NCBI GenBank assembly: GCA_018001935.1
Contig: JAGNHB010000046.1
Location: forward strand, 1 to 32,000
Reading direction: 5' to 3'
Length of the DNA stretch: 32,000 bases
Source: Acidobacteriota bacterium
Lineage (GTDB): Bacteria; Acidobacteriota; JAAYUB01
Numbering within the stretch: position 1 is the first letter of the stretch; each line of letters starts with the position of its first letter. Positions 8,688-31,999 of the stretch are shown here, one piece after another. The notes under the pieces were generated by a model that was given only the letters and a program-made list of their open reading frames with translations, made no database searches and was not told the DNA's origin. The translations under genes were made by a program, and so were the position numbers.

Positions 8688-9042
8688 CTCACGGAGGCAC
8701 AGAGACTCGGAGCAGATTGCGGCGTGGTGATATCGTGGCCGTGGCCGTCCGAAATCCCCGCGCCTCTGCGCGAGATAACTCTTTGAATTACAATAACTGA
8801 TCGTTTGCTGACGTGTGCGGCTCTGGCATGAGGCCGACGGCGATAGCCCTACCGACGGCGATACCGATACCGATCTGCGATACCGATTCCGACACCGACC
8901 CCGGCGGAGATTCCTCCGGACCTACAGCCCAACCCGGATAAACCGGAAAGAAACCACGGATGAACACGGATCATCCGGACGCTTCAGAATAAACAGGAAG
9001 AGGACACCCATTCTTCTGCCTCGAGTGAGTGTCCTGAATCAT
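8688..9042. repeat. Composite intergenic repeat block, left copy: hairpin-like 94-bp unit, a GATACC/GACCCC low-complexity tract, a ccggacctacagcc word and the 49-bp hairpin element
   Basis: 8688-8781 aligns with 9778-9871 (shared ctcacRgaggcacRgaga...ggccgtccg...gcctctgcgc...gaga.aa). 8836-8935 (gacggcgata..gataccgataccgat..cgattccgacaccgaccccg..ttcctccggacctacagcc) parallels 9905-10050. 8994-9042 is copy 2 of the 49-bp element. Confidence 0.75.
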
Positions 9043-9059
9043 GGTGATACGCTGACCGC

Positions 9060-9737
9060 TCAACGACGTTTGTTCAGGCCGAGCGAGATAGGTTTGCGTC
9101 GATATTCACGGACCAGGCGTCTGGCCTCGAGGTGTATGCGTCGTTCCTCATCTGCCCGGCGTCTGGCCTCGGCGCGAGCTACATTCCGTTTCCATGCGGC
9201 CAGGGACGGGGGGTTACCCCAGCCCCGTTTTGAACGGAGCAGTGACAAGGTATGAAACAGGATGGGTAAAAGAGTAGCCCCCACTACAGCCGCGACTTTG
9301 ATAGCTGACCAGCCGATATTCCGCCAGTCTGCCACGAAAACCAGGATGTAGAGAGACGTGACGGGCAGTGTTACGGCCCCCAGCCAACCGTATCGGATGC
9401 TGCGGTACCTGTGCTCCCTGGAGACAATAGAAAAGAACACATGTCTCAGGAGATAGAGGATGGTTCTTTTCCCTCTTAAAAAGAACAACAGAAGAAAAAG
9501 AAGGGAAAAAGTAATCAATCCGCTGTTGATCCGGGAATAATCTTTGTCGGTTTCCTCGGTATAATGGAAAGCGATCACTATTCCAAGCAAGACGAGAATC
9601 AGAAACCAATTAAAAAGGGGTTCCTTCCGGTCCTCCTCGTCAAGCATCAGGTGCGGCAGCTGCTCCTCGATGGGTACCTCCTCGGTTACCTCCGGCAACG
9701 GGGGTGGTTGTGGCGGCTTATCAAGATCCAGAATCAT
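9060..9737 (-). CDS. Hypothetical 4-TM membrane protein with a basic coiled C-terminal tail, encoded by a markedly AT-rich gene
   Basis: The ORF holds four clear hydrophobic helices (LFNWFLILVLLGIVIAF, LITFSLLFLLLFFL, GWLGAVTLPVTSLYILVFVA, VAAVVGATLLPILFHTLSLL) and the tail AEARRRADEERRIHLEARRLVREYRRK. Start taken as ATG 9737 (MILDLDK). GTG 9782 and an internal Met are alternatives, and the SD is weak. Confidence 0.6.
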   Translation of the reverse strand: MILDLDKPPQPPPLPEVTEEVPIEEQLPHLMLDEEDRKEPLFNWFLILVLLGIVIAFHYTEETDKDYSRINSGLITFSLLFLLLFFLRGKRTILYLLRHVFFSIVSREHRYRSIRYGWLGAVTLPVTSLYILVFVADWRNIGWSAIKVAAVVGATLLPILFHTLSLLRSKRGWGNPPSLAAWKRNVARAEARRRADEERRIHLEARRLVREYRRKPISLGLNKRR

Positions 9738-9777
9738 TGGTCTACCACAATAAAATGCTTGAAAAGAATATGTTAAT

Positions 9778-10075
9778 CTCACAGAGGCACGGAGAAGATC
9801 GCAGGGAACCGACGGCTTGGCCGGGGCCGTCCGGATTCACCGTGCCTCTGCGCCTTCGTGAGAGAAAAATCCGGGCCGGGCGGATTCCTGCCATCTTGCG
9901 ATGTCGAGATCGACGGCGATTCCGATACCGACCCCGATGGGAAAGTTTCCGGACCTTCAGCCTATCGACCTTTCGACAGCGACTGCGATACCGATACCGA
10001 TTCCGACCCCGACCCCGACCCCGATGGGAATCCCTCCGGACCTACAGCCTACAGCCTAAACCCCTACAGCCTATA
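9778..10075. repeat. Composite intergenic repeat block, right copy (direct orientation relative to 8688-9042)
   Basis: It contains an 11-bp perfect inverted repeat, cagaggcacgg (9780-9790) with ccgtgcctctg (9840-9850). It also carries the GGGCGGATTCCTGCCATCTTGCG word (9878-9900), gataccgataccgattccgaccccgaccccgacccc tracts and repeated ccggacctWcagcc / cagcctaaac words. Confidence 0.75.
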
Positions 10076-11096: not shown

Positions 11097-12257
11097 ATGT
11101 TTGTATTCCAGGGATGCGACGTCTTCGGCCCCGAGCCGCTCGGCCGCAAGGACGTTCTGACCGCCGGCGGGCGCTTCGTCGCCGTCGCCGACCGGATCGA
11201 CGCCCCCGCCCTGCCGGGCTGCACGGTGATCGACGCCGCGGGGCTGAAGATGGTGCCCGGCCTCATCGACGGGCACGTGCACATCGCCGGCGCCGGCGGG
11301 GAGGGCGGGCCGGCCACCCGGACGCCGGAACTCCGCCTCTCCCAGCTCCTGGACGGCGGCGTCACCACCGTCATCGGCTGCCTGGGCACCGACGGCATCG
11401 CCCGCACCGTGGACGGCGTCCTCATGAAGGCGAAGGCGCTGAAGGCCGAGGGGGTCTCCTGCTGGATCTACACGGGTGCCTACCAGCTCCCTGTCCCCAC
11501 GATCACCGGGGACCCCGGCCGCGACATCGCCCTGGTCGAGGAAGTGATCGGGGTGGGCGAGGTGGCGATCTCGGACCACCGCTCCTCGGGCCCCACGGTC
11601 GACGAGCTGATCCACCTCGTCGGGCGCGCCCGCGTGGGCGGCATGCTGGGCGGGAAGGCCGGTATCGTCTGCTTCCACATGGGCGACGCGAAGGACCCCT
11701 TCCGCATTCTCTACCAGGTCGCGGAGCGCAGCGAACTGAAGCTCACCCAGTTCGTCCCCACCCACGTCAACCGCAACGACTACATCTTCGAGGACGCCAA
11801 GACCTACGGCAAGACCGGCTACGTGGACCTCACGGCCAGCTCCTACCCCTACTACCCCCAGTACGAGGTCAAACCCTCGAAGGCCGTGGTGCAGCTGGTG
11901 GAGGCCGGGGTCCCGCTGGAGCACATCACCCTGTCGTCGGACGCCATCGGGTCGCTCCCCGACTTCGACGCCCAGGGCAACCTGATCAAGCTGGACGTGG
12001 GCGAGCCGAAGTCCATCTTCACGGAACTGGTGGACCTGGCCACCACGGAGGGCTTCCCCCTGGAGAAGGCCCTGAGCATCGTCACCTCCAACGTGGCCCG
12101 GATCCTCCGGCTGCCGCGCAAGGGGCGGATCGCGCCCGGCTTCGACGCCGACGCGGTCTTCCTCGACGCCGACTGGCGCATCCGCCACCTGGTGGCAAGG
12201 GGGGAACTCATGATCCGGGACGCCGAGCGGCTCCGGAAAGGCACATTTGAACGCTGA
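11097..12257 (+). CDS. iadA: Isoaspartyl dipeptidase (beta-aspartyl peptidase)
   Basis: Collinear with E. coli IadA: PGLIDGHVHIAGAGGEGGPATRTPE, GVTTVIGCLGTD, YTGAYQLP..TITG, VGEVAISDHRSS, GGKAGIVCFHMGD, PTHVNRN, LSSDAIGS, DADAVFLD. ATG 11097 follows AGGAGG; the ORF upstream of it overlaps udp on the opposite strand. Confidence 0.92.
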   Translation: MFVFQGCDVFGPEPLGRKDVLTAGGRFVAVADRIDAPALPGCTVIDAAGLKMVPGLIDGHVHIAGAGGEGGPATRTPELRLSQLLDGGVTTVIGCLGTDGIARTVDGVLMKAKALKAEGVSCWIYTGAYQLPVPTITGDPGRDIALVEEVIGVGEVAISDHRSSGPTVDELIHLVGRARVGGMLGGKAGIVCFHMGDAKDPFRILYQVAERSELKLTQFVPTHVNRNDYIFEDAKTYGKTGYVDLTASSYPYYPQYEVKPSKAVVQLVEAGVPLEHITLSSDAIGSLPDFDAQGNLIKLDVGEPKSIFTELVDLATTEGFPLEKALSIVTSNVARILRLPRKGRIAPGFDADAVFLDADWRIRHLVARGELMIRDAERLRKGTFER

Positions 12258-12271
12258 AGGAAGGAGGGATC

Positions 12272-13138
12272 ATGCCCGTCACCCGACCCGTCATCACGCT
12301 CATCACCGACTTCGGAACCATCGACGCCTACGTGGCCGCCATGAAGGGCGTCATCCTGTCCATCGAGCCCGGCGCCCGCATGGTGGACATCTCCCACGAC
12401 ATCCCGCGGGGGGACGTTCAGCACGCCGCCTGGGTCCTGGCCCAAAGCTACCCCTGGTTCCCCAACGACTCCCTGCATGTCGTGGTGGTGGACCCCGGCG
12501 TGGGCGGCGCCCGCCGGCCGATCCTGGTCTCCACGGAGAACCACTTCTTCCTGGCGCCCGACAACGGCGTGCTCTCCTGGGTCTACCGGCGGGAGGAACT
12601 CTACGGGGCCTGGGAGCTGACGGAGACGGAGTTTTTCCGCAACCCCGTCAGCATGACCTTCCACGGCCGCGACATCTTCGCCGCCGTGGCCGGGTGGATG
12701 TTCAAGGGCCTGGACAGCAGCCGCTTCGGGGAGCCCATCGAGGACCACGCCGGGCTGTCGAGGTTCGAGATCCCCGTGCCCGTCGAGCTCCGGCCCAAGG
12801 TATGGAAGGGCGCCATCCTGCACGTGGACCGCTTCGGGAACCTCCTGACCAACCTCACCACCCGGGAAATCCCCATCGAGGAGAACGGCCTTCCCGCCGC
12901 CCAACTGATCAAGACGAAGGCCGGGGAATTCCGGCAGGTCAGCCGCTGCTACGAGGAGGGCGACCCCGGCACGCCCGCCCTGGTCCTGGGCGGGACCGGC
13001 TTCTACGAGATCGCCGTCCGGAACGAGTCCGCGGCGGCCGTCCTGGGCCTGAGCCGCGGCAACGAGGTCGCCGTCCTGGTCAAGACCGATTTCAAGGAGT
13101 TCACGCCCGAGGAAGAAGACCGCTCCTTCCTGATCTGA
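12272..13138 (+). CDS. SAM hydroxide adenosyltransferase / SAM hydrolase family protein (DUF62, fluorinase/chlorinase-like fold)
   Basis: The N-terminal signature ITLITDFGTIDAYVAAMKGVI...VDISHDIP...VVVVDPGVGG.RRPILV and the C-terminal barrel-like half match my recollection of the DUF62 family. AAGGAGGG lies 5 nt upstream of the ATG, and the gene starts 14 bp after the iadA stop. Confidence 0.8.
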   Translation: MPVTRPVITLITDFGTIDAYVAAMKGVILSIEPGARMVDISHDIPRGDVQHAAWVLAQSYPWFPNDSLHVVVVDPGVGGARRPILVSTENHFFLAPDNGVLSWVYRREELYGAWELTETEFFRNPVSMTFHGRDIFAAVAGWMFKGLDSSRFGEPIEDHAGLSRFEIPVPVELRPKVWKGAILHVDRFGNLLTNLTTREIPIEENGLPAAQLIKTKAGEFRQVSRCYEEGDPGTPALVLGGTGFYEIAVRNESAAAVLGLSRGNEVAVLVKTDFKEFTPEEEDRSFLI

Positions 13139-13157
13139 CCGACCCCGGAGGTCGTGC

Positions 13158-14705
13158 ATGGCCCTCGTCACCTTCACCCTCAACGGCCGAAGCCTGCAGG
13201 CGGAAGCGGGGCGGATGCTGCTCCCGGTGGCCCTGGAGAACGGCATCCACATCCCGCACTACTGCTATCACCCCGGCCTGTCCGTCTCCGGGAACTGCCG
13301 GATGTGCCTGGTGGAGATCGAGGGCGTCCCCAAGCTGCAGACCGCGTGCTCCACGGCGGTTCGCGAGGGGATGGCGGCCCGGAGCGACACGGACCGGGTG
13401 AAGCGGGCGGTGCGGCACGTCCTGGAGTTTCTGCTCATCAACCACCCCGTGGACTGCCCCGTCTGCGACCAGGCGGGCGAGTGCGGCCTTCAGGAGTACT
13501 ACATGAGCGTGGGCCGCTACGACAGCCGTTTCGCCGAGGACAAGGTGACCAAGGCGAAGAAGGCCGCCCCCATCGGCCGGTGGATCGTCCTCGACCAGGA
13601 GCGCTGCATCCTCTGCTCCCGCTGCGTCCGGTTCACCCGGGAGGTGTCCCGCACCGGCGACCTGGCCATCTTCAACCGTGGGGACCACGCGGAAATCGAC
13701 GTGATGCCGGGGAAGACGCTCTCGGGGCGTTACACGGGCAACCTGGCCGACGTCTGCCCCGTGGGAGCCCTCACCTGCCGGGACTTCCGGTTCAAGTGCC
13801 GGGTCTGGTACCTCCGGCGGACCCCGTCCGTCTGCACTGGGTGCGCCCGGGGGTGCAACGTGGAGATCCACACCAACCCCGACCGGCCCCAGCACGGCGA
13901 GGCCCGCCGCGTCATGCGCCTGAAGCCCCGCCCCAACCCCGACGTCAACGGGCACTGGCTGTGCGACGACGGGCGCTACGGTTACGGCTTCATCGACGAG
14001 GGCCGGCTGGCCCACGCCGCCATCCGGTCGGAAACCGGCCTGCAGCCGGTCCGGCTGCGGGAGGCCATCGACCTGCTCGGCCAGTGGGTAGAGGAGACCG
14101 ACCGGGAGCATTTGCTCTACGTCCTGTCGCCGAAGTCCTCCAACGAGGAGCTCTTCGCCGTCCGCAAGCTCTTCGCCGAGACCCTGAAGGCCGGTTGCGT
14201 TCTTCCCTCCGCCGGGATGAAGACCGGCGACGCGGACGACCTCCTCGTCCACGAGGACAAGCACCCCAACAGCCGGGGGGCCATGGAGATCTTCTCGTTC
14301 CTGGAGGACGAGCTCCTCTCCGAAGAGGCCCTGGCGGGTCTGATCCGGGAGAAGAGCGTCCGCCTGCTGGTCCTCGACCGGTGCGAGCTGCCGGACGGCC
14401 TCCCGGGCGAACTGGCCGCGGCGGGCTGCCGCCTCGTCTGGGTGGGGACCAACCGCAGCCGGACGGCCGAGGCCGTGGACCTGGTGATCCCCGCGGCCGT
14501 CCACGCGGAGCAGGACGGGTCTTTCGTCAATTCGGCCGGGCTCGTCCAGCACTTTCGCAAGGCCCTCGACCCCCTCGGCGAGTCCGAGCCCGAGTGGACT
14601 CTGTGGAGCCGCCTCGCCCGCCGGCTGGGGTGCAAGGTGAACTACACCTCGGCCCGCCGGGCCCACCTGGACCTGCGGAAGACCCTGCCCTTCTTCGCCG
14701 GGTGA
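13158..14705 (+). CDS. NuoG/Nqo3-like iron-sulfur protein (N-terminal 2Fe-2S plus 4Fe-4S clusters, shortened molybdopterin-like domain); no other nuo genes in the window
   Basis: Motifs CYHPGLSVSGNCRMCLVEIEG...ACST (2Fe-2S), INHPVDCPVCDQAGECGLQ (His-Cys3 4Fe-4S), RCILCSRCVRF...CPVGAL (4Fe-4S) and VCTGCARGCNV. GGAGG lies upstream of the ATG at 13158. Confidence 0.8.
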   Translation: MALVTFTLNGRSLQAEAGRMLLPVALENGIHIPHYCYHPGLSVSGNCRMCLVEIEGVPKLQTACSTAVREGMAARSDTDRVKRAVRHVLEFLLINHPVDCPVCDQAGECGLQEYYMSVGRYDSRFAEDKVTKAKKAAPIGRWIVLDQERCILCSRCVRFTREVSRTGDLAIFNRGDHAEIDVMPGKTLSGRYTGNLADVCPVGALTCRDFRFKCRVWYLRRTPSVCTGCARGCNVEIHTNPDRPQHGEARRVMRLKPRPNPDVNGHWLCDDGRYGYGFIDEGRLAHAAIRSETGLQPVRLREAIDLLGQWVEETDREHLLYVLSPKSSNEELFAVRKLFAETLKAGCVLPSAGMKTGDADDLLVHEDKHPNSRGAMEIFSFLEDELLSEEALAGLIREKSVRLLVLDRCELPDGLPGELAAAGCRLVWVGTNRSRTAEAVDLVIPAAVHAEQDGSFVNSAGLVQHFRKALDPLGESEPEWTLWSRLARRLGCKVNYTSARRAHLDLRKTLPFFAG

Positions 14706-14746
14706 CGCCGGCCGCCCCGCGCCGTTCCCCCGGCTTCGGAGAGACC

Positions 14747-16822
14747 ATGCACTTCGACCGCGCCAGGGCACTCGAACTCCTCCGGTTGGGCACGGGCCTT
14801 CCGGACGCCCGGTTCCGGGAGGGCCAGGAGGAGGCGATCCGCCACGTGACGGAGGGCCGGGGCCGGCTGCTGGTGGTCCAGCGGACGGGCTGGGGGAAGA
14901 GCTTCGTCTACTTCATCGCGACCAAGCTGCTCCGGGAGGCCGGCCAGGGCCCCACGCTGCTCGTCTCCCCCCTGCTGGCCCTGATGCGCAACCAGATCGC
15001 GGCGGCGGTCCGGATGGGCGTGCGGGCGCTCACCATCCACTCCGAGAACCCGGAGGAGTGGGCGTCGGTGGAAAGCGCCATCCGGCACGACGAGGCGGAC
15101 ATCCTCCTGATCTCGCCGGAGCGACTGGCGAACCCCCGCTTCTGTGGCGAGGTGCTGTCCTTCGTCGCGGGCCGGATCGCCCTGCTGGTGGTGGACGAAA
15201 CCCACTGCATCTCCGACTGGGGGCACGATTTCAGGCCCCATTACCGCCTGCTGGAGCGAACGGTGAAGACGCTCCCGCCAAACACCCGCCTGCTGGCGAC
15301 GACCGCCACGGCGAACAACCGCGTGATGGAGGACCTGCAGACCGTCCTCGGGCCAAACCTCACCATCAACCGGGGGAACCTCGACCGGCCGTCCCTCCGG
15401 CTCCAGACCCTGCGGCTGCCCAGCCAGGCCGAGCGGCTGGCCTGGTTGGCCGCGCAGTTGCCCCGTCTTCCCGGCAGCGGGATCGTCTATACGCTGACGG
15501 TCCGCGACGCCGAGCGGGTCGCGGCCTGGCTCCGGTCCCGGGGAATCGAGGTGGCCGCCTACACCAGCGAGACGGGCGAGGCCCGCCCCGAGCTGGAGCA
15601 GGCCCTCCTGGACAACCGGGTCAAGGCGCTGGTGGCCACGCCGGCGCTGGGCATGGGCTTCGACAAGCCGGACCTGGCGTTCGTGATCCACTACCAGGCG
15701 CCAGCGTCGGTGGTGACCTACTACCAGCAGGTCGGCCGCGCGGGCCGCGCCCTCGACACGGCTTACGGGGTGCTGCTGAGCGGGGAGGAGGAGACGGAGA
15801 TCACGAGCTGGTTCATCGAGAGCGCGTTCCCCTCGAGGGAGGAGGTCCGCTGCGTGCTCGAGGCGCTGGAAGCGGCGCCGGCAGGGCTTTCCGTCCCCGA
15901 GATGATGACGCGGGTGAACCTGAGCATGGGCCGCATCGAGAAGGCCCTCGCCCTGATCTCGCTGGAATCGCCCACCCCCATCGCGAAACAGGGCGTCCGG
16001 TGGCAGTTGACGGCCGGCCGGCTGAGCGAGGCCTTCTGGGAACGAGCCCGGCGGCTGAACCTCAAGCGCCGGGAGGAGCAGCGCCAGATGCAGGATTACG
16101 TGGCCCTCGCGTCCGGGCACATGGCGTTCCTCATCCGGGCGCTCGACGGCGAACCGGCGGCGGATCGCCCGAACGATCCCGCACCCTTCGACGAGGTCAT
16201 CGACCCGGCCCTGGTCCGGGACGCCGTCGCCTTCCTCCGACGAATGAACCTCCCCATCGAAGCGCGAATCCAGTGGCCGGCCGGCGGGATACCGAAGTAC
16301 GGCCTCCGGGGGCGGATCGACCCGAAGCTGCGGGCGCAGGCCGGCCGGGCGCTCTGTGTGTGGGGCGACGCCGGTTGGGGCCGCCTGGTCAGCCGGGGCA
16401 AATACCACGACCGGCACTACGCCGACGAGTTGGTGGAGGCCGCGTCCAGCCTCCTGCGGGAGTGGGCCCCGGAACCGTTCCCGGAGTGGGTCGCCTGCGT
16501 GCCCTCCCTTCGCCATCCGGAACTGGTGCCGGACTTCGCCCGCCGGCTGGCGGCCGCGCTGGGGCTGCCCTTCGGGGACGCCCTCGAAAAAACCGGCGAA
16601 CGCCCCGAGCAGAAGAGCATGGCCAATAGCATCCAGCAGGCCCGCAACGTTGACGGGTCCCTGGGGGTGCGGACCGGGGCCGTGCGCGGCGGGCCGGTGC
16701 TGCTCGTGGACGACATGGTGGACTCGCGGTGGACCTTCACTATCGCGGCATGGCTGCTGCGATCCCACGGCAGCGGGGAGGTCCGGCCTTTCGCACTCGC
16801 ACAGACGGGGCATGACCGATGA
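14747..16822 (+). CDS. RecQ-like superfamily-2 DNA helicase fused to a C-terminal ComF-type phosphoribosyltransferase (PRTase) domain; PsyrT-like candidate toxin/effector
   Basis: Helicase motifs [17 protein letters not shown] (motif I), [19 protein letters not shown] (DExH, RecQ-style), [28 protein letters not shown] and [10 protein letters not shown] (motif VI). I saw no Cys4 zinc module or HRDC. The C-terminal ~115 aa (nt ~16480-16819) reads VACVPS...[17 protein letters not shown]...QKSM..S.QQARNV.GS..V...[26 protein letters not shown], matching the ComFC/PRT PRPP-loop pattern. The real start is ATG 14747; the upstream 531 codons of the 1222-aa ORF are read-through across the NuoG-like gene in another frame. 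Confidence 0.88.
16480..16819 (+). other. ComF/PRTase-like domain within the helicase fusion protein
   Basis: [13 protein letters not shown] is an acidic-hydrophobic PRPP-binding-type loop, preceded by the VPS...LA..LG.P and Q...R..N..G pattern typical of ComFC-like proteins. Confidence 0.7.
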
Positions 16823-18129
16823 ACGAAACGCTTTCCCCCAACACCCAGGCGGTTCTCCTTCTGACCGCCCCCCTCCTGGCCGGACGGGCCGGGCCGTCAC
16901 CCGACGTTCTGACACCGGGGGAGTACAAGCGTTTGGCGCGCTTCCTCCAGGAGCGGAAGCGCCAGCCATCCGACCTGTTGTCACCGGACGGCCCGGGGCT
17001 GGCCGCGGAGTGCGGGCGGGTCGTCGACCCCGGCAGGCTCCAGCGCCTCCTCTCCCGGGGCTTCCTGCTGAGCCAGGCGGTGGAACGCTGGCAGGCCCGG
17101 GCGATTCGGGTGGTGAGCCGCTCCGACGCCGCATACCCCCAGCGCTTGAAGTCCCGGCTCCGCGAGGATTCCCCCCCGCTGCTCTACGGTTGTGGGGATT
17201 TCTCGCGGCTCGACGCGGGCGGACTGGCCATCGTGGGCTCCCGTCACGTGGATGCGGCGCTCGCCGCCTGGGCCGAGTCCGCCGGCCGGCTGGCGGCGGA
17301 GACGGGGCGCCCCCTCGTCTCGGGCGGGGCGCGGGGGATCGACCAGGCCGCCATGCGCGGCGCCCTGGAAGCGGGAGGGAGCACGGTGGGCGTCCTGGCG
17401 GACAGCCTGGAACGTTCCGTCCTGGAACGGGAGAACCGGAACCTCCTGCTGGACGGCCGCCTGACCCTGGTTTCGCCCTACGACCCCTCCGCCGGCTTCA
17501 ACGTGGGAAACGCCATGCAGCGGAACAAGCTGGTCTACGCCCTGTCGGACGCGGCCCTCGTGGTCAGTTCCGACCTCGCGAAGGGAGGGACCTGGTCGGG
17601 GGCCGTGGAACAGCTGGACAAGTTGAGACTCGTGCCCGTCTTCGTCCGGGAAGACGGCCCGCCGAGCGAGGGGCTGGCCGCCCTGCGGCGCCGGGGCGCC
17701 CTGCCGTGGCCCTCCCCCTGCACGCCGGCCGCCCTGGAAGCCGCCCTCGCGTCGGCGGAGGCCGAGCGGCGGAAACCGGTCCCCCGGCAGGGCGACCTCT
17801 TCCAGGTGTTCGCGGGAGAACCCGGGACCGCCGCCCCTCCCCGCGACGACGTGCCGGCCGACCGACCCGCGCCCCCCGCTCCCGACGCTGACCCGGACCC
17901 CGGCCCCGCCCCGGCCGGATCCGCCGCCGAGGAGCTTTTCGCCAAGGTGCGGGAACTGCTCTGCCGGGTGCGGTCCCCCCGGGGCGTCACCGAGGTGGCG
18001 GAGGAGCTGAACGTCCTGAAGAGCCAGGCGAAGGCATGGCTGGACCGGCTCGTGGAGGACGGGGTGCTGGAGCTTCACGTCAAGCCCCTGCGGTACGGGC
18101 CGAAAACCCGCCGCAGCCTCCTGGACTAG
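16819..18129 (+). CDS. DprA/Smf-like (SLOG superfamily Rossmann) protein with a Pro/Ala-rich linker and a C-terminal winged-helix domain; PsyrA/ShosA-like candidate antitoxin/sensor
   Basis: DprA pattern YPQRLK...PPLLYGCGD...[11 protein letters not shown]...[33 protein letters not shown]...LTLVSPYDP...[36 protein letters not shown]. The C-terminus [42 protein letters not shown] looks like a wHTH. The ATG overlaps the upstream stop (ATGA at 16819-16822). Confidence 0.85.
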
Positions 18130-18139
18130 GGCCCGCGGT

Positions 18140-19120
18140 ATGGACCTGGCGACGTCGGAACGCGCTTTTCCCCTGCTCGGCGTGGTCGGGCCCACCGCCT
18201 CGGGGAAGAGCGCCCTGGCGGTGGAACTGGCCCGGCGCTTCGGCGGCGAGATCGTCAACTGCGACTCCATGCAAGTCTACCGTGGGCTGGACGTGGGCAC
18301 CGCCAAACCCGACGCCGGCCTCCGCCGGGAAATCCCCCACCACGTCCTGGACGTCGCCGACGTGGACGAGGTGTTCTCGGCCGGACGGTACCAGAAACTG
18401 GCCCGCGCGGCACTGGAAGACATCCGGTCCCGGGGGCGGCTGCCCGTGGTGGCGGGCGGGACGGGGTTCTACCTGCGGGCCCTTCTCTACGGCATCTTCG
18501 AGGGGCCGGGGCGGGACGAGGGGTTCCGCCGTCGCCTGCAGACCATCGTCGAACGCCGGGGGCCCGAGACCCTTCATCGCATCCTCGCCCGCCGCGACCC
18601 GGAATCCGCCCGACGGGTCACCCCCCGGGACCACCAGCGCCTCGCCCGCGCCCTGGAGGTGCTCCACCTGACCGGGCGCCCCATGAGCGAGCACTTCGGC
18701 GTCGCGGAGTCGCCCCTGGACGGCTTCTCTCCCCTCCTTCTCTGCCTGGGGCCGCCCAGGGCCGCGCTCTGCGAGCGGATCGACCGGCGCGTCCTCGAGA
18801 TGCTCGACGCCGGGTGGGTGGACGAGGTGCGCGCGCTCCTGGACCGGGGGGTCTCCCCGGCGTCCAAGGGGCTCGAGGCCATCGGGTACCGCGAGATCGT
18901 GGCGTTCCTTCGCGGCGAAGCGACCTGGCTCGCCACGGTGGAAGCCATCCGCGCCGCCACCCGCCGCTACGCCAAGCGCCAGCAGACGTGGTTCCGGAAA
19001 GAGCGGGACCTCGTGCGACTGGAGGGCTTCGGCGACGATCCCTCCCTCCGGGAAGCAGCCTTCCAGCAGGTGGAAACCCGGTTCCCACGCGCCGTCCCGG
19101 CGCGGGCCAATGGGGTGTGA
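18140..19120 (+). CDS. miaA: tRNA dimethylallyltransferase
   Basis: Motifs GPTASGKSALAVELA (P-loop), EIVNCDSMQVYRGLDVGTAKP, HHVLDV, GGTGFYLRALL and YAKRQQTWFR. Starts 10 bp after the DprA-like stop. Confidence 0.92.
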   Translation: MDLATSERAFPLLGVVGPTASGKSALAVELARRFGGEIVNCDSMQVYRGLDVGTAKPDAGLRREIPHHVLDVADVDEVFSAGRYQKLARAALEDIRSRGRLPVVAGGTGFYLRALLYGIFEGPGRDEGFRRRLQTIVERRGPETLHRILARRDPESARRVTPRDHQRLARALEVLHLTGRPMSEHFGVAESPLDGFSPLLLCLGPPRAALCERIDRRVLEMLDAGWVDEVRALLDRGVSPASKGLEAIGYREIVAFLRGEATWLATVEAIRAATRRYAKRQQTWFRKERDLVRLEGFGDDPSLREAAFQQVETRFPRAVPARANGV

Positions 19121-21093: not shown

Positions 21094-21275
21094 GAACCAC
21101 GAAATACACGGAATACACGAAAGGAGATGAAGCCTGGAAATCCACGAACAGGTTTTCAAAGGCGAGGGATGATGTTCAAGAAGGCCACCATTCATCGGGG
21201 CGGACCCCTGAACCCCTTCAGCCTAAACCGTTAAAAGCCTGTTCTTGAACCACGAACCACACCAACCACACGAAC
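21094..21275. repeat. Left arm (IR-L) of a ~180-bp imperfect inverted repeat built from CACGAA-type words
   Basis: The reverse complement of 23187-23367 aligns end to end with 21094-21275 at roughly 80% identity by eye. The terminal blocks are near-identical: gaaccacgaaatacacggaatacacgaaaggaga and ccccttcagcctaaaccg.taa.agcct.ttcttgaaccacgaaccacaccaaccacacgaac. Confidence 0.85.
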
Positions 21276-21367
21276 AGGGGCCCTGGGGTTGCAGCCCCGT
21301 AACTGGTGACGCAGGCTCCGGCCTGCGCGGGAAAACAAAGCAAACCCGGAAGCAGAGGTCGGCTGAT

Positions 21368-22231
21368 ATGGAACTAACTTCCCGTGTGAAAATCGGGCTG
21401 CTCCTTCTGGTATGTCTGGCCATCCCGGGGCTTTTCTGGGGTTGCGGGGAGCAACCCGCCCCGCTTCCGGCTTTCACCTGGTGGGATTACAGGCCGTTCC
21501 CTTTGTTGCGGCTGCCGAAAACGCAGTTGGGTACACTGCTGCCGGTCAGACCTCATGGCAACATCTTTCTGACGCTGGACGCCCACGCTGTCCCTTTTCT
21601 CGGCAACAAGCGCATGGTTGATCTGGGGGATCTGTCCGCGCGAATACGTCGATGGAAGGAAATGGAGAGCATTGGACAACCGACCGGTCCCGGACCCCTG
21701 ACTCCGTTATTGTCGCCCTGGAAGCCGGACGGGCGGGACGCCCAGGCCCTGATCGCCCTCGACCCGGCCCTGAAATTCGCCCAGGTGCGCCTCCTGCTCT
21801 CGGCGTGCAGGGCCGCCGGGCTGCCCGACGCCGCCCTGGTCGCCCGTCGGGTTTCTCCCCCCGTAACCATTCCCGATCCGGATGACGAGCTGCTTTTCTG
21901 TCTCAGGTTCCGATGGGAGGAAATCTCCGCGAAGTTTGAGGCTCTCGATTTGCGGCAAGTCCCCCTCTGCAGCTATGCGATCAATTTCCGGACCTCGGCG
22001 TCGCCGGATTCAAGCCCCTGGATCGAACTGACCGCGCAGGGATTGTCTCCCGCGCTTCGGGTTACCGACGGACCCAGGCAAGCGGGGGGTTTAACAAAAG
22101 GACCGGAAGAAACCGGGACGGGTGTAATCTGCATCCATCCCCGGGATGACGCCACCGTGGCCGCTTTTTTCCGGGCGCTCGAGGAATCCGCGAGACAGGG
22201 ATACCAAGCCGTCCTGATTGAAGTAGAATAA
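21368..22231 (+). CDS. Hypothetical lipoprotein (signal peptide with a Cys lipobox-like site)
   Basis: MELTSRVKIGLLLLVCLAIPGLFWGC has a hydrophobic h-region followed by Cys. Two segments (ALIALDPALKFAQVRLLLSACRAAGL and VICIHPRDDATVAAFFRALEESARQGYQAVLIE) weakly resemble ExbD/TolR-type cores by eye. The ORF upstream of 21368 runs into IR-L and is not credible coding sequence. Confidence 0.55.
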   Translation: MELTSRVKIGLLLLVCLAIPGLFWGCGEQPAPLPAFTWWDYRPFPLLRLPKTQLGTLLPVRPHGNIFLTLDAHAVPFLGNKRMVDLGDLSARIRRWKEMESIGQPTGPGPLTPLLSPWKPDGRDAQALIALDPALKFAQVRLLLSACRAAGLPDAALVARRVSPPVTIPDPDDELLFCLRFRWEEISAKFEALDLRQVPLCSYAINFRTSASPDSSPWIELTAQGLSPALRVTDGPRQAGGLTKGPEETGTGVICIHPRDDATVAAFFRALEESARQGYQAVLIEVE

Positions 22232-22343
22232 ACACTTGAGCCGCTGGTTGCAGGCCAGGTTGTGTTGCGTATCAGATTTTAGGAACGGACGGGAAAGGCA
22301 ATTGAAAAAAAAGCCGTAAACCTCATGGAGGCAAGGAGGGAAG

Positions 22344-22811
22344 ATGCGTCGAATCAGGGTGTATGTCGACACTTCCGTATTCGGGGGAATTGAAGACGAG
22401 GAGTTCTCGGATGCGAGTCGGCGGTTTTTCCAACGGGTAGCAGAAGGTGATTATATTGTCTTGATTTCCGAGGAGACCTATCGAGAGCTATCGAAATCAC
22501 CGGAATCAGTTCGTGACATTTTAACGGCTCTACCGTCCGGGTCTCTGGAAGACGTTCTTATCGAATCCGAGACACTTGAATTGGCCGCTGAGTACATCCG
22601 ATCCGGAATACTTGGCGAGGCTTCACGAGGGGATGCGTTGCACGTGGCCGCCGCAACCGTGGCTGGTGCGGACCTCATTCTGAGCTGGAATTTCAAACAC
22701 ATCGTGAATTATAATCGAATCAGGAGATTCAATGGGGTGAATGTCCTGCTGGGCTATCGTTCGATGACGATTCTGAGCCCACGAGAGGTGGGAGATGAAT
22801 CCGAAGAATAA
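22344..22811 (+). CDS. PIN-domain ribonuclease-type toxin (VapC-like)
   Basis: Acidic PIN residues occur in the expected order: VYVDTSVFGG (Asp1), ISEETYRE (Glu), GDALHVAAA (Asp) and LILSWNFKHI. A strong AGGAGGGAAG SD precedes the ATG. Local GC is clearly below the flanks. Confidence 0.75.
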   Translation: MRRIRVYVDTSVFGGIEDEEFSDASRRFFQRVAEGDYIVLISEETYRELSKSPESVRDILTALPSGSLEDVLIESETLELAAEYIRSGILGEASRGDALHVAAATVAGADLILSWNFKHIVNYNRIRRFNGVNVLLGYRSMTILSPREVGDESEE

Positions 22812-23019
22812 AAAGTTCGATTGCGTAGAGATGAAAAACCGGGTTCAGGCAGAACTGATGCGGGAATACGAAGCCCGAAAGTCGGAATTTCCGTCCTACG
22901 AGAGTTTCATCGTCGCCACTGCGGACCAGGACCCCTGGATCGTCTCTGTGCGGGAAAAGATCCGGAAAACCTCCCAAAAAACCAAGTCTACAATACACTC
23001 CCGGAAGAGTGCCGTCTGA
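22795..23019 (+). CDS. Small (74-aa) hypothetical protein overlapping the PIN gene 3' end by 17 nt; candidate cognate antitoxin in reverse gene order
   Basis: The ATG lies within ...gagaggtgggagATGaat, so an SD sits inside the PIN coding sequence. The ORF shares the low GC of the PIN gene. It has a charged helical N-half (VEMKNRVQAELMREYEARKSEF) and no recognised motif. Confidence 0.45.
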   Translation: MNPKNKKFDCVEMKNRVQAELMREYEARKSEFPSYESFIVATADQDPWIVSVREKIRKTSQKTKSTIHSRKSAV

Positions 23020-23186
23020 ACATCGGGGTCCGGCAGATGGTTGAGACCCTTGACCGGGCCCGGCGTGCTGGGGTCGAGGATACCTTCCTGATTCCGGCTC
23101 CTGGAGCTCGACGAGGTCCGCTACGCCATGGAAGGCGATGCGGTTGCCCGCTTCTCACGTTGAATCCCTGCTCAGTTCCAGCTATA

Positions 23187-23367
23187 GTTCGTGTGGTTGG
23201 TGTGGTTCGTGGTTCAAGAATAGGCTGTTAGCGGTTTAGGCTGAAGGGGTTTAGGATTTGACCCGATGAATCGTGGCTTTCCTCAACGTCGTCCCTCGAC
23301 TTTGAAGACCTTTTCGTAGGGCTCCTGGTTTCTTCTCCTTTCGTGTATTCCGTGTATTTCGTGGTTC
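23187..23367. repeat. Right arm (IR-R) of the ~180-bp inverted repeat
   Basis: See IR-L. An additional partial cgtgtatctcgtggtt word follows at 23376-23391. Confidence 0.85.
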
Positions 23368-23417
23368 CTTTCTTTCGTGTATCTCGTGGTTGATAACGCA
23401 TCGTTTTGGAGGTTGAG

Positions 23418-24373: not shown

Positions 24374-31999
<7,626 letters not shown>

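Follow-up and report, generated by a model that had tools for sequence, protein, structure and literature searches.

Within a 32,000-nucleotide stretch of DNA from an uncultured Acidobacteriota bacterium (contig JAGNHB010000046.1, positions 1 to 32,000 of the forward strand; hereafter the window), two overlapping genes at positions 14747-18129 very probably form a canonical two-gene PsyrTA (RqlHI) toxin-antitoxin/anti-phage module on the chromosome of this organism. The first gene, psyrT (rqlH; 14747..16822, forward strand), encodes the predicted toxin of 691 amino acids (aa), and the second, psyrA (rqlI; 16819..18129, forward strand), encodes the predicted DprA-like antitoxin of 436 aa. The two are linked by an ATGA stop/start overlap (16819..16822, forward strand) typical of translational coupling, the TGA of psyrT sharing letters with the ATG of psyrA. 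This overlapping gene pair is real. Both open reading frames (ORFs), the overlap, and every motif quoted in a preliminary description of the same DNA were present in the translation, and the ratio of nonsynonymous to synonymous substitution (dN/dS) against a relative with 91% identity was 0.19 for PsyrT and 0.25 for PsyrA, compared with 0.14-0.24 for the neighboring genes. Because both are under purifying selection, they are genuine genes and not chance ORFs.

Both proteins matched the PADLOC models for this family from end to end, in agreement with the family membership proposed in the preliminary description. The PsyrT model gave 884.9 bits with the 691-aa protein (E = 8.6e-267; residues 2-689 against model positions 2-686 of 689), and the PsyrA model gave 418.9 bits with the 436-aa protein (E = 5.3e-126; residues 1-426 against positions 1-394 of 398). 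In full-length BLASTP comparisons, PsyrT was 66% identical to a copy carried by an integrative and conjugative element (ICE) of E. coli, whose partner is 53% identical to PsyrA, and 50% identical to the F11-type RqlH of E. coli. The published members of the family are built in the same way. RqlH of M. smegmatis (MSMEG_5935; 691 aa) is made up of a RecQ-like ATPase, a linker specific to RqlH, a zinc domain, and a ComF/phosphoribosyltransferase (PRTase)-like C-domain, and it acts as a 3'-5' single-stranded DNA translocase and helicase (PMC3378886). RqlH of E. coli F11 has 690 aa, and its partner RqlI (400 aa) is DprA-like and ends in a helix-turn-helix (HTH); rqlH always lies upstream of rqlI, and the two genes mostly overlap or stand close together (PMC4670107). 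The window pair shares with these systems the length of the toxin (690/691 aa), the order of RecQ-like helicase, linker, zinc-domain region, and ComF/PRTase tail, and a DprA-like partner with a putative C-terminal HTH encoded immediately downstream by an overlapping gene. The residues mutated in RqlH (K49, D148, and D663 in the published numbering) correspond to K51, D150, and D655-656 of the window PsyrT. The pair differs from the reference systems in its host, an Acidobacterium, and in its position among metabolic genes, with no recognizable island.

What is known of the function of this family comes from homologues. E. coli RqlH is genotoxic when RqlI is missing, leading to SOS induction and filamentation, and this effect requires the PRTase domain (residues 509-690, including D663 of the phosphoribosyl pyrophosphate [PRPP] pocket) as well as the rest of the protein; RqlI co-precipitates with RqlH only if the PRTase domain is present (PMC4670107). 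Millman et al. equated PsyrTA with RqlHI, reported that the cloned pair defends against phage, and placed a PRTase domain in the toxins of both PsyrTA and ShosTA. Toxicity of the toxin alone and its neutralization through direct binding of the antitoxin are known only for E. coli RqlHI and for a P. syringae pair. By analogy with these homologues, the window PsyrT would be toxic on its own, PsyrA would neutralize it, and the pair would protect against phage.

The N-terminal part of PsyrT is a RecQ-family helicase core of superfamily 2 (SF2; residues ~20-346, 14804..15784, forward strand), which was recognized by Pfam, by TIGR00614, and by comparison with RecQ chains in the PDB. Pfam returned DEAD (77.5 bits) and Helicase_C (52.4 bits), TIGR00614 (recQ_fam) scored 221.1 bits against a cut-off of 219.8, and the PDB chains matched residues 7-335 at 1e-52. 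Motifs I, II (DExH), and VI of RecQ-like SF2 helicases are intact and lie on the forward strand in the Walker A sequence TGWGKS (residues 47-52, 14885-14902), a 15-residue block containing the DExH box (residues 150-164, 15194-15238), and a third helicase motif (residues 325-334, 15719-15748); K51, D150, E151, H153, and R331/R334 were invariant across an alignment of 74 homologues, which also served for all residue conservation and zinc-site counts given below. PsyrT is nevertheless far from a classical RecQ: the RecQ equivalog TIGR01389, whose cut-off is 640.2, reached only 244.6 bits and covered residues 21-367 only. The Dpd helicase DpdF shares the RecQ-family core as well, and PADLOC models for DpdF reached 288 bits on residues 21-406, while the NCBIfam DpdF equivalog scored 157.6 against a cut-off of 550. 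In comparison with both of these helicases, PsyrT lacks the RQC domain, the HRDC domain (no family match to either in Pfam), and the zinc site, and carries a PRTase tail in their place.

This tail is predicted to be a ComF/PRTase-like effector domain (residues ~501-691, 16247..16819, forward strand). The preliminary description had staked its reading on a PRTase fold in this part of the protein, and the fold was confirmed by modeling. In the Pfam search that it had also called for, the helicase families and the DprA and SLOG families of the partner were found, whereas Pribosyltran, with 20.7 bits on residues 597-687, remained below its threshold of 26.3. Residues 490-691 were modeled with AlphaFold2 (pLDDT 77.3, pTM 0.81), and with this model as the Foldseek query the best 50 PDB matches were all type I PRTases, APRT, PurF, and HGXPRT among them; they also include ShosT (8zvd/8zvc, TMq 0.50-0.52) and, at TMq 0.46, H. 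pylori ComF (7p0h). In the 13-residue PRPP loop (residues 651-663, 16697-16735, forward strand), D655, D656, D659, S660, W662, and T663 were conserved in 71-74 of the 74 homologues, with D655/D656 retained in 73. Judging from these residues, PRPP-dependent chemistry by the tail is plausible but unproven.

The preliminary description had taken PsyrT for nothing more than a RecQ helicase and the locus for a three-domain variant in which a PsyrT-type helicase toxin had become fused to a ShosT-type PRTase toxin, both served by one DprA-like antitoxin. The tail does show a distant likeness to ShosT, visible in the Foldseek matches and in a PADLOC ShosT score of 21.9 bits around the PRPP loop, but we regard such a fusion as having almost no probability. 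The C-terminal 202 residues alone scored 219.9 bits with the PADLOC PsyrT model (positions 492-686), so the PRTase tail belongs to the definition of the family and is no addition to it; the 689-position model already contains the tail, and the end-to-end collinearity of the window protein with this model refutes a fusion. Proteins of the same architecture with 690/691 aa were described in 2012 and 2015 (PMC3378886; PMC4670107), nearly all of the best 120 homologues measure 690-691 aa, and the N-terminal pyrophosphatase-like domain of ShosT is absent. The fusion reading arose from a mistaken picture of the family architecture, with the helicase assigned to PsyrT and the PRTase to ShosT only. 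The locus is therefore an ordinary member of the already described PsyrTA/RqlHI family, in whose toxins helicase and PRTase always occur together, and is no new fusion. Two short PADLOC models named DpdF, PDLC02866 and PDLC02869 (255 and 74 positions), matched the PRTase tail of PsyrT with no helicase involved (56.2 and 54.6 bits); RqlH-like fragments may have been the source of both models, which could lead to mislabeling.

Comparison with ShosTA itself leads to the same assignment. Both systems combine a PRTase-fold toxin that needs acidic PRPP-loop residues with a DprA-like antitoxin, and they share genotoxicity/filamentation and anti-phage activity. ShosT, however, has a pyrophosphatase-like hydrolase at its N-terminus and no helicase (PMC11961720), whereas the N-terminus of the window PsyrT is a RecQ-type helicase; RqlH and RqlI bind one another, but no such binding occurs between ShosT and ShosA (type IV); and ShosA is shorter than the window PsyrA. 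At the window locus, the ShosT and ShosA models scored only 21.9 and 86.8 bits, against 884.9 and 418.9 bits for PsyrT and PsyrA.

Between the helicase core and the tail lie two further regions. The RqlH-specific linker (residues ~347-430, 15785..16036, forward strand) is, with low confidence, probably winged-helix-like: in the full-length AlphaFold2 model, residues 364-421 were predicted as helix-helix-helix-strand-strand with pLDDT 66-86. The full-length model was otherwise poor (pLDDT 60.8, pTM 0.38) because the alignment was shallow, its rows being 71-75% identical to the query, and the fold search was not based on it. The next region (residues ~431-500, 16037..16246, forward strand) appears in the alignment of homologues as a remnant of the RecQ-type zinc-binding domain, corresponding to the Cys4 domain of M. 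smegmatis RqlH at residues 435-499 (PMC3378886). All four cysteines are replaced (G457, R474, D477), five residues are deleted, and none of the five cysteines of PsyrT (133, 154, 369, 537, and 584) falls within residues 431-500. In this the window protein differs from both the M. smegmatis and the F11-type RqlH.

The preliminary description had remarked on the missing Cys4 module and HRDC domain, and both absences stand, although the loss of Cys4 marks a widespread group and is not a peculiarity of this locus. Four cysteines in RecQ spacing were present in 41 of the 74 homologues, including the F11-type RqlH of E. coli, whereas 31, the window PsyrT included, had none of the four; these 31 also share the 5-residue deletion. 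The zinc-less group comprises the loci at least 60% identical to the window PsyrT together with M. colombiense, Conchiformibius, and the ICE-borne E. coli copy. In the alignment (window residues 457-478), the split of the family into a Cys4 and a zinc-less subclade is clean, and it goes unmentioned in the published RqlHI/PsyrTA accounts cited here. Judging from this alignment, the window PsyrT belongs to a widespread zinc-less subclade that is not unique to the locus. Since the Cys4 site has been lost in 31 of the 74 homologues, it distinguishes a subclade and does not define the PADLOC-recognized family. Both subclades occur in E. coli (loci L088 and L089) at different chromosomal sites, one at the edge of an ICE and the other at the gntU-yhgN site.

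PsyrA consists of a DprA/SLOG Rossmann domain (residues 91-293, 17089..17697), a low-complexity linker rich in Pro, Ala, and Asp (residues ~330-372, 17806..17934), which differs in length and sequence among homologues, and a C-terminal, possibly winged HTH (residues ~373-426, 17935..18096), all on the forward strand. Pfam identified DNA_processg_A (121.9 bits) and SLOG LDcluster4 (36.1 bits), and DprA and ShosA chains from the PDB matched at 1e-8 to 1e-6. For the winged helix that the preliminary description had placed at the end of the partner, the tail of the window protein gave only weak, sub-threshold HTH matches (DUF7342 at 20.7-25.1 bits, TrmB, and IclR); the tails of 32 homologues consistently matched HTH families (TrmB in 18, FaeA in 14, and DUF7342 in 12, with MarR, IclR, and ArsR as well), while a profile of PsyrA tails retrieved only weak and mixed HTH and homeodomain matches among PDB sequences. 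Two forms of PsyrA exist, a long form with the HTH tail, such as that of the window, and a short form without it, found in about one-third of homologues; the form is uncorrelated with the zinc state of PsyrT.

A motor of the SF2 class, a PRTase-like fold of ComF type, and the DprA Rossmann domain together recall the competence proteins ComFA, ComFC, and DprA, and the preliminary description had raised the possibility of a DNA-uptake module that would process incoming single-stranded DNA. The likeness of the domains is real, as the structural match of the tail to H. pylori ComF and the DprA domain of the partner attest, and it was already discussed in 2012 and 2015; a role in uptake, however, is highly improbable. 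The motor of PsyrT is of the RecQ family and not ComFA-like, ComFC carries a zinc finger of its own, and the competence proteins are three separate polypeptides, whereas helicase and PRTase are joined in one protein here. The tail is best described by the PsyrT model (219.9 bits), and PsyrA fell well under the DprA equivalog cut-offs (TIGR00732, 90.5 against 191.15; NF008007, 63.1 against 495). In addition, the 32-kb window contains no com, pil, or other uptake genes, no role in transformation was found for E. coli RqlHI (PMC4670107), and the neighborhoods of the family are defense or mobile elements and not competence loci.

If the window pair works as a PsyrTA module, a mechanism can be proposed along the lines of its better understood relatives. 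The preliminary description had called the mechanisms of these systems essentially unknown; this is partly outdated, given that RqlH toxicity has been mapped to the PRTase domain, that RqlI binds this domain, and that a mechanism with structures was published for ShosTA in 2025. In ShosTA, purine metabolism and replication are disrupted by the PRPP-binding PRTase; ShosA, a DNA-binding protein, is inherently unstable, and the system is set off by shut-off mediated by T7 Gp0.7 (PMC11961720). In the resting cell, PsyrA would hold the PRTase tail of PsyrT inactive. Infection could then tip the balance in one of two ways: (i) the labile antitoxin would be lost after host shut-off, as shown for ShosA, or (ii) aberrant DNA would be met by the helicase or DprA-like domains. 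The freed PRTase might transfer phosphoribosyl groups onto DNA or the nucleotide pool, and this transfer would block the replication of host and phage alike.

Several observations weigh against the assignment of the window pair to an anti-phage module. Its PsyrT lacks the Cys4 site present in the biochemically characterized M. smegmatis helicase, and in its PRPP loop the phosphate-binding turn, canonically TTGxT, reads DSRWT (DSxWT family-wide); no member of the family is known to have PRTase activity, and in one native-host and K-12 study E. coli PsyrTA gave no detectable protection. The window, moreover, is no defense island. Its genes run in the order S8 peptidase, amidohydrolases, CAAX protease, PNP-family phosphorylase, S-adenosylmethionine (SAM) hydroxide adenosyltransferase, NuoG-like protein, psyrTA, MiaA, IMP dehydrogenase, PdxJ, and nonribosomal peptide synthetase (NRPS), and psyrTA sits inside a tight same-strand string of metabolic genes at 11100-19120 (amidohydrolase, SAM hydroxide adenosyltransferase, NuoG-like, psyrT, psyrA, and miaA, with gaps of 14, 19, 41, -4, and 10 nt). 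A scan of this string found no promoter-like or terminator-like site between the genes, terminator-like sites occurring at chance level. Codon usage is host-like, the GC content at third codon positions (GC3) being 0.92 and 0.89 for the pair, as in its neighbors. The same arrangement recurs in a relative whose DNA is 91.3% identical across 8974 bp; there, PsyrT is 91.9% and PsyrA 85.7% identical. No tRNA-type integration site emerged from tRNA and Rfam scans of the window, both of which were empty, and there is no integrase in the window.

Taken at face value, this setting, together with the purifying selection on both genes, would fit a domesticated housekeeping module for repair or recombination, expressed with a metabolic operon and without any role in conflict, in which an RqlH-type helicase substitutes for RecQ and its DprA-like partner serves as RecA loader or regulator. 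That mycobacteria with RqlH lack classical RecQ (PMC3378886) points in the same direction. We nonetheless consider this explanation unlikely. Universal synteny, which the preliminary description had named as the sign of a housekeeping pair, was not what we found: at the syntenic SAM hydroxide adenosyltransferase/NuoG-like site of the next relative found, which is more distant, the pair is absent and an unrelated gene stands in its place, and flanking genes differ between loci. The scores far below the RecQ and DprA equivalog cut-offs (244.6 against 640.2 and 90.5 against 191.15) and the genotoxicity of E. coli RqlH without RqlI (PMC4670107) also speak against it. The embedding in a same-strand string, the host-like codons, and the conservation in the close relative fit long residence or domestication, and psyrTA is an accessory insertion, long resident in the lineage and kept functional, that is not universally syntenic. 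The synteny probes that gave information were P0121 and P0122. A third probe, the NuoG-like homologue P0124, was rejected, as it is a true complex I NuoG encoded within a nuo operon rather than the window gene's orthologue.

The distribution of relatives also argues against vertical housekeeping inheritance. At least 8000 database clusters matched the window PsyrT; the top 120 showed 72-76% identity, and their named sources were Acidobacteria, Planctomycetota, Chloroflexota, Rokubacteria, Entotheonellia, and Gammaproteobacteria. The exact sequence of the window PsyrT is on record from a metagenome-assembled genome labeled Acidobacteria bacterium. Among species-representative genomes, relatives with 47-73% identity occurred in at least 591, patchily spread over many phyla, and a DNA match was found in 1676 of 5426 complete E. 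coli genomes. About 72 of the 80 related loci that we kept have a PsyrA homologue directly downstream, and 37 of 73 related loci would allow a 4-nt psyrT/psyrA overlap. None of the 80 shares the flanking genes of the window, save for a chance miaA that in L025 lies on the opposite strand at a distance of 5 kb. Identities of 60-76% across unrelated phyla combined with unrelated flanks imply horizontal transfer rather than vertical inheritance, and, judging from the sequences compared, the PsyrTA family is horizontally mobile. The ICE-borne E. coli copy lies at the edge of its conjugative element next to HigA and ABC-three-component genes, and full-length relatives were found on 12 plasmid records, haloarchaeal plasmids included. 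In the phage collection, only RecQ-like helicase cores and no full-length PsyrT relative were found, giving no evidence of phage carriage. One further locus (L091, 7001-10374; PsyrT 72% identical) has psyrTA inside a type I restriction-modification operon in the order hsdM-hsdS-Abi_C-psyrT-psyrA-hsdR, with a transposase nearby, so that defense genes are nested within a defense operon.

The zinc-less subclade also invites a different interpretation, in which it would be a separately evolving and horizontally spreading lineage whose helicase works without a zinc module, and in which the window pair would have been domesticated together with purine genes, tying the PRTase to purine/PRPP metabolism and away from phage defense. 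The subclade is unusually conserved, its members in Acidobacteria, Planctomycetota, Chloroflexota, Mycobacterium, and E. coli sharing 60-76% identity, and the same-strand string, which may be transcribed as a unit, includes genes related to purines or nucleosides (PNP-family phosphorylase, SAM hydroxide adenosyltransferase, MiaA, and IMP dehydrogenase). We think this scenario quite improbable. A functional link between these neighbors and the PRTase toxin was considered and set aside as a low-probability case, the arrangement being confined to this lineage and the flanks recurring in 0 of the 80 other loci. A canonical PsyrTA module, long resident among metabolic genes, remains our preferred reading of the locus.

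Other features of the window deserve mention in their own right. Immediately upstream of psyrT, a gene at 13158-14705 (forward strand) encodes a stand-alone, truncated NuoG-like Fe-S protein of 515 aa with 2Fe-2S and 4Fe-4S regions and a short molybdopterin remnant; it adjoins the SAM hydroxide adenosyltransferase gene and is not part of a nuo operon, and this pairing is kept in relatives with 95% and 63% identity. Farther upstream, a low-GC (0.54) ORF at 9060..9782 (reverse strand), encoding a membrane-protein-like product of 240 aa, lies between composite direct repeats at 8698-10062. The repeats comprise a 74-nt unit (8698-8771 and 9780-9853, 74% identical) and GAT/ACC-rich units of 34-52 nt (8840-8929 and 9898-10049), and the whole resembles either a small insertion or an intergenic region that has been duplicated.

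Downstream of the pair, a low-GC patch at 21100-23400 (0.53-0.61) contains three ORFs. The first, at 21245..22231, is an orphan of 328 aa with no match in Pfam, NCBIfam, or PADLOC. The second, at 22344..22811, has a PIN domain exactly at the Pfam threshold (23.6 bits), and its end is overlapped by the third, a 74-aa ORF at 22795..23019; from their predicted products, the two may represent a VapC-like toxin pair with an unusual gene order. The far end of the window (24374-31999, reverse strand) is occupied by an NRPS-type ORF of more than 2541 aa that runs off the window and has two adenylation/condensation/peptidyl carrier protein modules, a terminal reductase (NAD_binding_4), and a cyclic-nucleotide-binding domain, the last of which is unusual.

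The NCBI name of the window PsyrT, which reads only "RecQ family ATP-dependent DNA helicase," is misleading, as is the name DprA given to the partner in the E. coli records examined; the locus should be labeled PsyrTA/RqlHI. While the window copy offers no new handle on the substrate of the PRTase or on the phage trigger, the PsyrTA family is still of interest, and since both subclades are present in E. coli, it would be easy to compare how the helicase functions when the zinc site is there and when it is not.

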